From the sequence record OL770073.2: a DNA stretch of 64,000 nucleotides; one strand, 5' to 3'. The position numbers were made by a program, and so were the translations under genes. Below are positions 37,308-62,929 of this stretch, one piece after another. Source of the stretch: Escherichia phage vB_EcoM-RPN226. Within the stretch, counting starts at the first letter, position 1. Every line of letters begins with the position of its first letter. A model generated the notes under the pieces. It was not told the DNA's origin. It worked only from the letters and a program-made list of their open reading frames with translations, and searched no databases.

Positions 37308-37331
37308 TGCTTAAGTTTCATGTGTTATAAT
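37305..37331 (+). promoter_or_regulatory. MotA-dependent middle promoter for gene 1
   Basis: MotA box TTAATGCTTAA (TGCTTAA 37308-37314) followed by TATAAT at 37326-37331. Confidence 0.55.
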
Positions 37332-37356
37332 CTTAACTAAATTTGAGGAGAAACAT

Positions 37357-38069
37357 ATGAAACTAATCTTTTTAAGTGGTGTAAAGCGTAGTGGAAAAGA
37401 TACTACCGCAGATTTTATCATGAATAATTATTCTGCAGTTAAATATCAACTTGCTGGTCCTATTAAGGATGCATTGGCTTATGCATGGGGTGTATTTGCA
37501 GCAAACACTGACTATCCTTGTTTAACTCGTAAAGAGTTTGAAGGAATTGACTATGATCGTGAAACTAATTTAAATCTGACTAAATTAGAAGTAATTACGA
37601 TTATGGAACAAGCATTTTGCTATCTTAATAGTAAAAGCCCAATTAAAGGTGTGTTTGTTTTTGATGACGCAGTTAATTTCGTAGCATTTAACAAGATTGC
37701 TGACGTTATAAATAATATTGAAGATCAATGGTCAGTCCGTCGTCTGATGCAAGCCCTAGGTACGGATTTGATTGTTAATAACTTCGACCGCATGTATTGG
37801 GTAAAATTATTTGCTTTAGATTATCTTGATAAATTTAACTCAGGTTATGATTATTATATCGTTCCTGATACTCGTCAAGATCATGAAATGGATGCGGCTA
37901 GGGCGATGGGTGCTACAGTAATTCATGTAGTTCGTCCTGGTCAAAAATCCAATGATACTCATATTACAGAAGCTGGATTGCCAATTCGTGATGGCGATTT
38001 AGTAATTACAAACGATGGTTCTCTTGAAGAACTTTTTTCTAAAATTAAAAATACACTAAAGGTACTATA

Positions 38070-39740: not shown

Positions 39741-39813
39741 TGGGAATTAGCCAAGTTGGTAAGGCATAGCACTTTGACTGCTAGATGCAAAGGTTCGAGT
39801 CCTTTATTCCCAG
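39741..39813 (+). tRNA. tRNA-Gln (anticodon TTG)
   Basis: acceptor stem TGGGAAT/ATTCCCA, T-arm GGTTCGAGTCC, anticodon loop CTTTGAC read by hand. Confidence 0.8.
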
Positions 39814-39814
39814 C

Positions 39815-39901
39815 GCGAGAATGGTCAAATTGGTAAAGGCACAGCACTTAAAATGCTGCGGAATGATTTCCTTGTGGGTTCGAGTCCCACTTCTCGTACC
39901 A
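39815..39901 (+). tRNA. tRNA-Leu (anticodon TAA)
   Basis: acceptor GCGAGAA/TTCTCGT, long variable arm, T-arm GGTTCGAGTCC, encoded CCA; forms a dimer unit with tRNA-Gln. Confidence 0.8.
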
Positions 39902-39907
39902 AAGTTT

Positions 39908-39979
<72 letters not shown>

Positions 39980-39992
39980 AAATTTAATTTAC

Positions 39993-40065
39993 TCCGTGTA
40001 GCTCAGTTTGGTAGAGCGTCTGCTTTGGGAGCAGAATGTCGCAGGTTCAAATCCTGCCGCGGAGA
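39993..40065 (+). tRNA. tRNA-Pro (anticodon TGG)
   Basis: D-arm TAGCTCAGTTTGGTAGAGC, anticodon loop TTTGGGA, T-arm GGTTCAAATCC. Confidence 0.8.
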
Positions 40066-40067
40066 CT

Positions 40068-40154
40068 GGAGGCGTGGCAGAGTGGTTTAATGCACCGGTC
40101 TTGAAAACCGGCAGTCGCTCCGGCGACTCATAGGTTCAAATCCTATCGCCTCCG
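40068..40154 (+). tRNA. tRNA-Ser (anticodon TGA)
   Basis: acceptor GGAGGCG/CGCCTCC, long variable arm, anticodon loop CTTGAAA, T-arm GGTTCAAATCC. Confidence 0.8.
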
Positions 40155-40161
40155 TAATTTC

Positions 40162-40234
40162 GCTGATTTAGCTCAGTAGGTAGAGCAACTCACTTGTAAT
40201 GAGGATGTCGGCGGTTCGATTCCGTCAATCAGCA
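40162..40234 (+). tRNA. tRNA-Thr (anticodon TGT)
   Basis: acceptor GCTGATT/AATCAGC, D-arm TAGCTCAGTAGGTAGAGC, anticodon loop CTTGTAA, T-arm GGTTCGATTCC. Confidence 0.8.
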
Positions 40235-40240
40235 TATCAA

Positions 40241-40312
40241 GGCCCTGTAGCTGGAAGGTTCAAGCAAGCGACTCATAATCGCCAGATGGTGGTTCAATTC
40301 CACCCAGGGCCA
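40241..40312 (+). tRNA. tRNA with CAT anticodon (Ile by T4 analogy, would be called Met by anticodon alone)
   Basis: acceptor GGCCCTG/CAGGGCC, anticodon loop CTCATAA, T-arm GGTTCAATTCC. Confidence 0.7.
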
Positions 40313-40319
40313 TATTTTG

Positions 40320-40360
40320 GGAACATAAATACTCTTAGAAATAGGAGATATTTATGTTCC
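40320..40360 (+). promoter_or_regulatory. 12-bp perfect hairpin sequestering segB start codon; SD in loop
   Basis: GGAACATAAATA (40320-40331) pairs with TATTTATGTTCC (40349-40360); ATG 40354-40356 in 3' arm; loop carries AGGAGA; 5' arm contains CATAAATA, a near-late-promoter. Confidence 0.6.
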
Positions 40361-41019
40361 ATTACACTTATAAAATAACAAATAAAATTAATAATAAAAT
40401 CTATATAGGCGCTCATTCTACCGAAAATTTAGATGATGGATATATGGGTTCTGGTAAATTATTAAAAAGAGCCCAAGACAAGTATGGTATAGAAAATTTC
40501 TCTAAAGAAATATTAGAGTTCTTTGACGATAAAACCTCTATGTTTGAGTCAGAAAAGAATATTGTGACTGAAGAGTTTTTAAAGCGCCCTGATGTTTATA
40601 ATTTGAAATTAGGTGGTGAAGGTGGTTGGGACCATTTAAACACTAAAGAATATTTGGATAAAAAGAAAGAAGCTTCCTTAAAAGGGGCTGCTGCTTTTAA
40701 AACCAGATTTGAGAACGACCCAGACCTTAAAGAAAAATATCGTAAAATGGGTTCAGAAAGGTTTAAACAGCTTTGGGATAATCCTAAGTATAGAGAGAAA
40801 TTTTTAAATACTAAATCTTTCTTGGGTAAGACCCATACTCCTGAAACTATTAATAAAATGAAAGAATCTCACGCCAAAAATAAACACCAACAAGGCGAAA
40901 AGAATTCCCAATTTGGTATGATGTGGATTCATTCATTAGATGAAAAAGTTTCTAAACGTATTAAGAAAACTGACCCAATTCCAGAAGGATGGTTTAAAGG
41001 TCGAAAAATGAAATTTTAA
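40354..41019 (+). CDS. segB: GIY-YIG homing endonuclease SegB-like, embedded in tRNA cluster
   Basis: 221 aa, GIY-YIG motifs YTYKITN...KIYIGAH; start codon sits in the 3' arm of a 12-bp perfect hairpin. Confidence 0.8.
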   Translation: MFHYTYKITNKINNKIYIGAHSTENLDDGYMGSGKLLKRAQDKYGIENFSKEILEFFDDKTSMFESEKNIVTEEFLKRPDVYNLKLGGEGGWDHLNTKEYLDKKKEASLKGAAAFKTRFENDPDLKEKYRKMGSERFKQLWDNPKYREKFLNTKSFLGKTHTPETINKMKESHAKNKHQQGEKNSQFGMMWIHSLDEKVSKRIKKTDPIPEGWFKGRKMKF

Positions 41020-41022
41020 TTA

Positions 41023-41099
<77 letters not shown>

Positions 41100-41415: not shown

Positions 41416-41443
41416 AGCCCCAGCCGAAAGGTTGGGGCTTTTT
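41416..41443 (+). terminator. rho-independent terminator after stable-RNA region
   Basis: AGCCCCAGCC-GAAA-GGTTGGGGCT hairpin plus TTTT. Confidence 0.7.
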
Positions 41444-41445
41444 AG

Positions 41446-41453
41446 TATAAATA
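41446..41453 (+). promoter_or_regulatory. late promoter (TATAAATA) for CTS-protein gene at 41493
   Basis: TATAAATA directly after terminator 41416-41443. Confidence 0.5.
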
Positions 41454-45049: not shown

Positions 45050-45486
45050 AAACATTATCAGCTGGTATTATCTTTATGACAGAAGATAAAGATTTATTTA
45101 TGGGTCGGGTTACTGGTTCTCGTAAGCCTGGAATGATGGCACATCGCTGGGATATTCCAAAGGGCCATGTAGAAAATTCTGATTTAAGCGCATTAGATGC
45201 AGCACGAAGAGAATGTTTAGAAGAGACTGGTTTTAACAATTATAATCCAGGCCTTCTAGAAGACCTAGGTGTATTTAAATATTCTAGTAATAAAGACTTA
45301 CAGTTATTTTATTATACGATTCCAGTAGAGCATGAGATGTTTAGAAATTGCCATTGCGAGTCTTATTTTGAAAATAAAGATGGTGTTATGATTCCAGAGA
45401 TGGATGCTTTTGCTCTTATTCCTCGTACCCAGTGGCAATATGTGATGGGTCCTTCACTTTATCGAATAATGAACAGCCTCTTTTAA
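45031..45486 (+). CDS. nudE: Nudix hydrolase NudE
   Basis: 151 aa with Nudix box GHVENSDLSALDAARRECLEETGF; directly upstream of e. Confidence 0.85.
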   Translation: MQEIKMKTLSAGIIFMTEDKDLFMGRVTGSRKPGMMAHRWDIPKGHVENSDLSALDAARRECLEETGFNNYNPGLLEDLGVFKYSSNKDLQLFYYTIPVEHEMFRNCHCESYFENKDGVMIPEMDAFALIPRTQWQYVMGPSLYRIMNSLF

Positions 45487-46289
<803 letters not shown>

Positions 46290-46290
46290 T

Positions 46291-46320
46291 GTTTACTTCC
46301 TCCAAGGACTTTGATACTAT
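46291..46320 (+). promoter_or_regulatory. early promoter upstream of denV remnant
   Basis: GTTTAC at 46291-46296 and GATACTAT at 46313-46320. Confidence 0.55.
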
Positions 46321-46347
46321 ACATTCATCAACTACTTGGAGGAAATT

Positions 46348-46422
46348 ATGACTCGTATCAATTTAACAACTTCAGAATTATTTCTGGTGGTAAGGCTTAA
46401 ACAGTTTACGCTTAAGTATTAA
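46348..46422 (+). pseudogene. denV: denV (endonuclease V) remnant: first codons only
   Basis: early promoter plus RBS GGAGG plus ATG encoding MTRINLT (T4 DenV N-terminus), then divergence and a stop after 24 codons. Confidence 0.5.
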
Positions 46423-62406: not shown

Positions 62407-62425
62407 TACTTGAAAATAATAAATA

Positions 62426-62455
62426 CCCTTATCTATTCAAGGTAAGGGTTTTATT
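62426..62455 (+). terminator. candidate terminator/attenuator between pin-like gene and gene 49
   Basis: CCCTTA-11 nt loop-TAAGGG stem followed by TTTTATT. Confidence 0.4.
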
Positions 62456-62929
62456 ATGTTATTGACTGGCAAATTGTACAAAGAAGAAAAACAAAAATTT
62501 TATAATGCACAAAACGGTAAATGCTTAATTTGCCAACGAGAACTAAATCCTGATGTTCAAGCTAATCACCTTGACCATGACCATGAATTAAATGGACCGA
62601 AAGCTGGAAAGGTACGTGGATTGCTATGTAATCTCTGTAATGCTGCAGAAGGTCAAATGAAGCATAAATTCAATCGTTCTGGCTTAAAGGGACAAGGTGT
62701 TGATTATCTTGAATGGCTAGAAAATTTACTTACTTATTTAAAATCCGATTACACCCAAAATAATATTCACCCTAACTTCGTTGGAGATAAATCAAAGGAA
62801 TTTTCTCGTTTAGGAAAAGAGGAAATGATGGCTGAGATGCTTCAAAGAGGATTTGAATATAATGAATCTGACACTAAAACACAATTAATAGCTTCATTTA
62901 AGAAGCAGCTTAGAAAGAGTTTAAAATGA
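62456..62929 (+). CDS. 49: endonuclease VII (Holliday junction resolvase)
   Basis: 157 aa, zinc-binding CLICQ...CNLCN and HLDHDH motif; matches T4 gp49. Confidence 0.9.
   Translation: MLLTGKLYKEEKQKFYNAQNGKCLICQRELNPDVQANHLDHDHELNGPKAGKVRGLLCNLCNAAEGQMKHKFNRSGLKGQGVDYLEWLENLLTYLKSDYTQNNIHPNFVGDKSKEFSRLGKEEMMAEMLQRGFEYNESDTKTQLIASFKKQLRKSLK

Follow-up and report, generated by a model that had tools for sequence, protein, structure and literature searches.

In genes 49 and e of bacteriophage T4, the textbook cases of this arrangement, a late promoter is located inside a hairpin that sequesters the ribosome-binding site; gene soc is counted in the same class. A comparable situation is met in the td intron, where the gene of the GIY-YIG endonuclease I-TevI lies, like segB, inside an early/middle transcription unit; a hairpin hides the ribosome-binding site on long transcripts, and a late promoter yields an RNA that is devoid of the inhibitory strand. 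For T4 segB, the same 41 nucleotides that are the subject of this analysis were annotated in 1985 as "pot. stem-loop structure; pot. terminator" (X03016). Translational occlusion of segB by the stem-loop was proposed by Brok-Volchanskaya et al. in 2008 (PMC2330249), who also had the Shine-Dalgarno (SD) sequence paired, compared the hairpin with those of I-TevI, I-TevII, I-TevIII, and Aeh1 MobE, and reported that the neighborhood of the segB 5′ end has no mapped promoter, so that its translation "remains to be restrained". Edgell, Gibb, and Belfort (2010; PMC2988022) drew a predicted segB late promoter beside that of I-TevI (Fig 5; segB is also found in Fig 1), Uzan and Miller (2010) referred to the segB structure as "implicated", and a SegB paper of 2026 is silent on expression control. 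Hairpin, occlusion, and late-promoter proposal are, hence, already published for T4, where the gate is the accepted, still putative, explanation; the observation and the reading given below reproduce these proposals. The parallel to I-TevI that was drawn in the initial annotation of the present sequence is apt, but it is not new, since it is contained in the figure of Edgell and coworkers.

The window analyzed here, a stretch of 64,000 nucleotides of Escherichia phage vB_EcoM-RPN226 (OL770073.2), belongs to a T4-like coliphage (Tequatrovirus) that is distinct from T4 itself. Over the 1.7 kb around the hairpin, the identity to Escherichia phage vB_Eco_OMNI12 amounts to 99.2%, and this region is represented, with a coverage of at least 80%, in 111 phage records. 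On the plus strand, the classic T4 tRNA cluster was located by ARAGORN at positions 39741-40312, with genes for tRNA-Gln, -Leu, -Gly, -Pro, -Ser, -Thr, and -Ile(CAU). The last of these, tRNA-Ile2 with the anticodon CAU (40241-40312, plus strand; named tRNA-Met by ARAGORN), is the final gene ahead of the mobile segB cassette, the left edge of which is a single-stranded, AU-rich spacer, UAUUUUG (40313-40319, plus strand). The segB coding sequence (40354-41019, plus strand; stop codon TAA at 41017-41019) specifies 221 amino acids and is followed, 3 nt past the stop codon, by tRNA-Arg (41023-41099, plus strand). The location of segB between tRNA-Ile(CAU) and tRNA-Arg, as seen by ARAGORN, bears out the placement of the site inside the tRNA cluster. 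According to its matches to Pfam PF01541 (GIY-YIG; 25.7 bits at a cutoff of 22.6, with the domain in the N-terminal part) and to PHROG 314 "homing endonuclease" (E = 1e-48), the open reading frame encodes a SegB-type free-standing GIY-YIG homing endonuclease. The protein is an ortholog of T4 SegB, to which it shows 84% identity, a value that is due to the divergent middle of the gene.

Directly downstream of the spacer, two exact 12-nt arms, GGAACATAAATA (40320-40331) and its reverse complement TATTTATGTTCC (40349-40360), form the perfect 12-bp stem that had been described initially; each arm has a single occurrence in the window, and the expectation from shuffled sequences is 0.00 matches. 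The segB AUG (40354-40356) falls, as claimed, within the 3′ arm. The SD sequence, which had been assigned to the loop as AGGAGA, has to be placed differently. In the predicted fold, six extra pairs between C40332-A40337 and U40342-G40347 follow beyond a one-base bulge at A40348, in the minimum free energy (MFE) and the centroid structure alike; the SD sequence AGGAG (40343-40347) is base-paired in this upper stem, and the loop consists only of a GAAA tetraloop (40338-40341, plus strand), which matches the published description for T4. The 5′ arm (40320-40337, plus strand) is composed of the lower stem GGAACAUAAAUA (40320-40331) and the upper, anti-SD stem CUCUUA (40332-40337), and the 3′ arm (40342-40360, plus strand) of UAGGAG, the bulged A40348, and the lower stem UAUUUAUGUUCC. 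The hairpin amounts to 18 bp in total, with SD and AUG both predicted to be paired.

RNA structure prediction, which the initial annotation had named as a check, returns a stable hairpin with an energy of -21.4 kcal/mol, compared to -5.7 ± 2.0 kcal/mol in dinucleotide shuffles (z -7.7; none of 200 shuffles as stable). The same hairpin is obtained unchanged in a 220-nt fold including tRNA-Ile, and the mean pairing probability is 0.87 across positions -13 to +3 of the segB start. When the region from -45 to +20 was folded at all 92 SD-preceded ORF starts of the window (mean -8.3, sd 4.4), segB ranked first as the most structured start region, with gene 49 (endonuclease VII), gene 1 (dNMP kinase), and gene e (lysozyme) on ranks 2, 3, and 6, respectively. 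Closely spaced perfect inverted repeats of at least 12 nt occur three times in the 64 kb, the segB hairpin being one of them. An Rfam covariance-model search over 40313-40360 returned tRNA matches and sub-threshold noise alone, even at E ≤ 1. Because of its z value, its first rank among the 92 starts, and the small number of comparable inverted repeats, the hairpin is regarded as real, exceptionally stable, and far beyond chance.

In the segB-less phage RB3, homology to the window stops at position 40312, that is, at the 3′ end of tRNA-Ile, and restarts at 41018, the right edge of the cassette; tRNA-Tyr and tRNA-Asn, the latter carrying the preferred cleavage site of SegB, are present in place of segB. 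One and the same UAUUUUG spacer with its hairpin is joined to differing tRNA-Ile alleles in T4 and PD112, in the window, and in p000v. From the boundaries in RB3 and the spacer shared behind different tRNA-Ile alleles it follows that the whole hairpin, the promoter-like arm included, moves with the endonuclease gene. The element is contained in 102 phage records with 94-100% identity over 90 nt, among them Mosigvirus p000v and Dhakavirus IME540. In the 12 sequences that were read, the stem varies at two places. Its closing pair is G-C in the window and three others, A-U in T4 and four others, and, as an intermediate, A.C in two, and U40335 is changed to C in phage G8, by which a G.U pair becomes G-C. 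The one compensatory closing pair may be taken as weak evidence for the structure. Conservation within the clade was considered as a sign of selection and rejected, since the 100 nt of coding sequence that follow the hairpin (95-100%) are kept at least as well as the hairpin itself; the sole divergent part is the middle of segB, with 70-80% identity to T4, RB33, and p000v.

The 5′ arm additionally carries CATAAATA (40324-40331, plus strand), a late-promoter-like box that corresponds to the T4 consensus TATAAATA in seven of eight positions, in accordance with the single mismatch claimed for it. The sole mismatch is C at -13. Since C(-13) pairs with the G of the AUG in the hairpin, the deviation from the consensus strengthens the stem. 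The T4 late box spans -13 to -6, with -13 as its least conserved, tolerant position; of the 50 T4 late sites listed, 32 match perfectly, nine carry an A at -13, and most of the others show a single deviation. In the structure of the gp55 open complex, protein pockets take up the bases at -12, -9, and -8, each of which is preserved in CATAAATA. If +1 is counted 13 nt downstream of the base that opens the box, the late transcription start would fall at 40337-40338 (plus strand), approximately at A40337, where the 5′ arm ends at the top of the stem. An RNA starting at 40337 would, if the putative promoter is used, be devoid of 40320-40336, that is, of the inhibitory strand. For the RNA 40337-40420 no stable structure is predicted (MFE -2.2 kcal/mol, centroid fully open), and the putative late leader would comprise 17 nt, in which 6 nt separate AGGAG from the AUG. 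The frequency of CATAAATA in the window shows no enrichment (three found versus 6.7 expected); two of the three copies are the two arms of the segB hairpin, and the third is located at 45095 on the minus strand. The invariance of CATAAATA in the T4-like clade is uninformative, because the box is complementary to UAUUUAUG in the other arm. If a box with C(-13) were confirmed to fire, the known tolerance of gp55 promoters would be widened.

Based on hairpin and box, we infer that the most likely mechanism for segB is a translational gate with an I-TevI-like late-promoter switch, of the same type as in T4 genes e and 49 and in I-TevI; this reading is held with reasonable, if not high, confidence. 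segB would be transcribed in the early and middle period as part of the tRNA transcription unit in which it resides. On such read-through RNA, the 18-bp hairpin (40320-40360) would pair SD and AUG, and ribosomes would be unable to initiate. The 5′ arm would double as a gp55-type late-promoter box (CATAAATA); once DNA replication begins, late RNA polymerase would start at about A40337, inside the hairpin. The resulting late RNA, lacking the 5′ arm and possessing an open leader of 17 nt, would be translated, and SegB would be made only late. As regards the I-TevI-like switch that had been claimed initially, the early translation block is retained, given the predicted pairing of SD and AUG and the timing of expression in T4 described below; the late-promoter half is plausible, and firing of CATAAATA in vivo is what we infer for it.

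In time-resolved omics data of T4 (PMC9697503), segB is classed as "early-RNA_late-Protein", as are e and ipI-III. Label-free quantification (LFQ) values of T4 SegB are zero at 0, 1, 3, 5, and 8 min; of three replicates, one is positive at 12 min and all are positive at 20 and 30 min (PMC9697503). By contrast, the products of trna.2 and trna.3, two ORFs that lie upstream and are transcribed together with segB, are seen as early as 3 min (PMC9697503). This pattern of early RNA and late protein is consistent with a translational block that is lifted late, and the translation-blocking half of the interpretation may be called well supported by the predicted stem and the timing of RNA and protein in T4. 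The text of a T4 dRNA-seq preprint (bioRxiv 10.1101/2024.04.04.588121; GSE255091) does not name segB.

The same data leave room for a serious rival, which goes back to the proposal of 2008. According to it, the hairpin would contain no working promoter and would act as a permanent throttle; all segB mRNA would include the full hairpin, and translation of a potentially toxic nuclease of relaxed specificity would be kept very low throughout. SegB abundance is low even late, at 20-30 min, with 2-5e7 LFQ compared to approximately 1e9 for Y03H, its neighbor in the supplementary table (PMC9697503), so that late detection could reflect slow build-up from leaky translation. The investigators who characterized SegB found no listed promoter nearby (PMC2330249), CATAAATA is not a consensus box, and restraint would make sense for an enzyme that cuts the tRNA genes of T4 itself in vitro. 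A lasting throttle would account for the hairpin and for the low protein level, but not for late boxes that are spread over the whole SegB family, nor for the placement of the predicted start, since +1 coincides, by the geometry, exactly with the stem top.

Distant relatives are informative on this question. In Acinetobacter phage AbTZA1, SegB is 54% identical in the alignment and its gene is also located between tRNA genes; a perfect TATAAATA is present in the 5′ strand of a hairpin that is unrelated in sequence and pairs SD and AUG. A search of IMG/VR with a single protein gave 4 loci, and an alignment of seven SegB proteins (A1) led to 158 further loci from IMG/VR and metagenomes, with 41-52% identity. 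Location of the start codons and removal of duplicates left 119 distinct start regions of the SegB family, for which 128 other ORF starts from these loci, each preceded by an SD, served as controls. A perfect TATAAATA at -60 to -14 precedes 46 of the 119 SegB-family starts and 5 of the 128 controls (Fisher p = 3e-12), and NATAAATA is present in 64/119 versus 14/128 (p = 2e-13), where the loci are phylogenetically non-independent and derive from uncultured phages, and where late-promoter specificity is assumed from membership in the T4 family. In the remaining 55 of 119 homologues, the stretch examined contains no NATAAATA box. Single mismatches in the box are concentrated at -13, with 19 cases (G 10, C 8, A 1) compared to 9 over the other seven positions together. 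All eight CATAAATA boxes of the family are found at -23 to -26, with offsets and contexts as for the TATAAATA boxes (gattttgCATAAATA versus gattttgTATAAATA), and C is interchangeable with T at -13 of orthologous box positions.

The box recurs in different structural surroundings. Hairpins of at least four types, distinct in sequence, hold the AUG in their 3′ arm, with the box lying within or next to the 5′ arm. Of the 64 genes with a box, 22 have an initiation region for which 40% or more of the pairing probability falls on bases that precede the predicted late start. For the largest type (type A, 10 sequences), RNAalifold gives the same 21-pair structure as the one defined in this analysis, with 98.6% of cells paired, compared to 24-49% when the partners are slid; 5 of the 21 pairs are changed on both sides, and none of 500 shuffles reaches the observed covariation. 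Within this type, TATAAATAGTA is the same throughout while the 3′ bases that it pairs with differ, an indication that the box is constrained by more than pairing. A combination of hairpin and late box is, from these comparisons, common in the SegB family, although not universal, because the homologues of Karamvirus and Jiaodavirus possess sigma-70-like TATAAT motifs instead of late boxes.

The enrichment of perfect boxes at the equivalent place, the exchange of C and T at -13 of orthologous boxes, and the invariant type-A box with its variable partners, together with the late promoter that was predicted by Edgell et al. (PMC2988022), all speak against a permanent throttle, which we consider possible but rather unlikely. 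Returning to the late-promoter switch, its recurrence throughout the family suggests that mobile endonuclease cassettes may carry their own late-expression switch. We lean, with only slight preference, towards the view that the gate would be an ancestral, cassette-borne module of a large family of tRNA-adjacent, SegB-like genes in environmental T4-like phages and would have been rebuilt in at least four sequence-distinct forms, where the box of the T4 form would be the exact complement of the spacer between SD and AUG, its C(-13) having been picked as the partner for the G in the AUG. If this is true, the cassette would arrive at each homing site with a timing device of its own and would, in addition, supply late transcription to the tRNAs downstream.

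A further explanation starts from the RNA rather than from its translation. Situated immediately 3′ of a tRNA, namely 7 nt after the CCA-less tRNA-Ile and next to a single-stranded, AU-rich spacer, the hairpin could mainly serve maturation of the polycistronic tRNA precursor, either with an endonuclease site in UAUUUUG or by protecting, once cleavage has taken place, the 5′ end of a segB-tRNA-Arg RNA, and any influence on translation would then be of secondary rank. Processing of segB RNA by RNase E has been discussed (PMC2988022), and 87 of the 119 homologues have a tRNA gene on the same strand at most 120 nt upstream, with a modal spacing of 41 nt, as in the window. The hairpin is, however, part of the endonuclease cassette, and phages lacking segB process the same tRNA-Ile without it; moreover, the stem is built precisely from SD and AUG, and many tRNA-adjacent homologues have a late box, yet differently placed stems. 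As the main purpose of the element, a role in processing or stability is therefore deemed improbable; it may hold as an additional function.

A terminator or attenuator between tRNA subclusters I and II, as implied by the label that X03016 gives to exactly these 41 nt, is very improbable. The reading as an intrinsic terminator was rejected, since the AU-rich stem is followed by CCAUUACAC, that is, not by a U-tract, and since a terminator scan did not report the segB hairpin and placed the real terminator of the cluster at 41416-41439; furthermore, tRNA-Arg and the species 1 and 2 RNAs downstream belong to the same primary transcript of 1.75 kb (PMC2330249). For annotation, the lesson would be that hairpins of this kind flag regulated starts rather than terminators. 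A chance or DNA-level inverted repeat devoid of RNA function, such as a cruciform or a recombination scar of cassette insertion, for which the AT-rich phage genome and the position of both arms at the left end of the cassette might be quoted, can practically be dismissed in view of the 0.00 expected matches, the z value of -7.7, the mere three such perfect repeats in 64 kb, the compensatory closing pair, and the covariation in homologous hairpins.

SegB is a nuclease of relaxed specificity that is able to cut the tRNA genes of its own phage and drives homing of the tRNA region; according to a report of 2026, it also drives amplification of anti-defence tRNA loci. Because of these roles in cutting, homing, and amplification, the timing and the amount of SegB are biologically important. 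What is added here to the gate already proposed for T4 is the corrected position of the SD sequence relative to the initial annotation, the mapping of the cassette, and the wide spread of the design in the SegB family, with support from covariation.

Summarizing the comparison with known systems, the leader hairpin of T4 segB (T4 71912-71952) is the same element as that of the window, with 39 of 41 nt identical, the same location between tRNA-Ile and segB, SD and AUG in the stem, and an unchanged CATAAATA. The stem is closed by G-C in the window and by A-U in T4, a compensatory double change by which codon 3 reads His in the window and Tyr in T4, and the upstream tRNA-Ile allele of the window is RB3-like and differs from that of T4. 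In the same genome, the leaders of gene e and gene 49 follow the same design as segB. Gene e (45523) has two TATAAATA boxes (45489 and 45502) in the 5′ strand of a stem that sequesters SD and AUG, and in gene 49 (62456) the 5′ arm contains AATAAATA; the stem of segB exceeds both in length and stability. Both e and 49 have host-benefit late functions, and their structures and late starts have been demonstrated experimentally. In the case of I-TevI, the late start has been mapped, deletion of the hairpin has been tested, and self-repression takes place via an operator, which distinguishes it from segB with its predicted start; besides, I-TevI resides in an intron and segB is free-standing in a tRNA cluster, with C at -13 of its box. 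The mobE gene of Aeromonas phage Aeh1 also encodes a free-standing homing endonuclease, with its ribosome-binding site in a hairpin that is tied to a late promoter; unlike segB, it belongs to the HNH family, is located between nrd genes, and uses the Aeh1-type late box CTAAATA, and the effect of its hairpin has been shown experimentally. New in comparison with these systems are the position of the segB hairpin within the mobile cassette and the finding that many distant segB relatives share the design of hairpin plus late box.

The start region of gene 49, encoding endonuclease VII (62416-62457, start codon at 62456), ranks second in structure in the window with a predicted folding energy of -18.2 kcal/mol. 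The 5' arm of its hairpin carries AATAAATA at 62418-62425, in which position -13 is an A, and the 3' arm includes the AU of the start AUG. This is the classic late-promoter and hairpin arrangement for gene 49, which provides an internal positive control. Gene 1, which codes for the dNMP kinase, presents a 13-bp stem (37314-37364; arms AGUUUCAUGUGUU and AACAUAUGAAACU) by which the AUG at 37357 is buried. On the loop side of this stem lies TGTTATAAT, which resembles an extended -10 sigma-70 promoter more than it does a late box; in T4, gene 1, like segB, has been assigned to the class "early RNA, late protein" (PMC9697503).

An imperfect inverted repeat is situated at 46288-46353 (75% over 24 nt), the 5' arm of which, CTTCCTCCAAG, is an anti-Shine-Dalgarno sequence with CTTGGAGGAAATTATG as its pairing partner. 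No open reading frame of at least 50 amino acids begins at the ATG at 46348, and the repeat may mark a small gene whose start is sequestered, directly downstream of gene e. At the end of the tRNA/rnaC unit, a strong terminator is found at 41416-41439, comprising 10 bp, seven of them G-C pairs, followed by a T-run; a consensus late box, TATAAATA, is located at 41446, 6 nt past this terminator (region 41416-41453).

On nucleotide comparison, the homing endonuclease gene segB is a mosaic. Over the first 100 nt it shares 95-100% identity with T4, RB33, and p000v; over the last 160 nt the values are 97-99% for T4 and RB33 and 79% for p000v. Identity is just 70-80% in the central 400 nt (40461-40860), where the linker and some of the DNA-binding region are encoded. 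This pattern suggests either recombination or fast evolution of the parts involved in target recognition. Only 3 nt separate the end of the segB stop codon from the start of tRNA-Arg (41017-41023); RNase P cleavage would therefore leave an mRNA with virtually no 3' UTR. Processing at this junction has been proposed to impair the segB mRNA (Brok-Volchanskaya et al. 2008, PMC2330249).

Homologues of SegB were compared in other phages, including IMG/VR and metagenome contigs (loci L021-L179). A tRNA is nearby in 113 of the 119 distinct SegB-like GIY-YIG genes, and in 87 of the 119 a same-strand tRNA ends 17-115 nt upstream of the ATG, the commonest spacing being 41 nt. Phage tRNA clusters are characteristically the home of such genes across environmental T4-like phages. 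Upstream of the homologue starts in Enterobacter phage fGh-Ecl04 (L016; 51% identity in the alignment) and Klebsiella phage 15882-6-1 (L017; 44%), no late box is found; in its place, around position 347, the sigma-70-like TGTATAAT or GATATAAT lies within small hairpins, which suggests a different timing solution in the Karamvirus and Jiaodavirus homologues.

The tRNA-Ile(CAU) adjoining segB (40241-40312) is of the RB3-like, not the T4-like, allele and contains GGTTCAATTCC followed by CCAG, which fits the core that has been published for SegB recognition (GGTTCRANTCC plus CCAR). Since no more than about 30 bp separate this match from the putative segB promoter, it could serve as a self-cleavage site or as an autoregulatory site like that of I-TevI.
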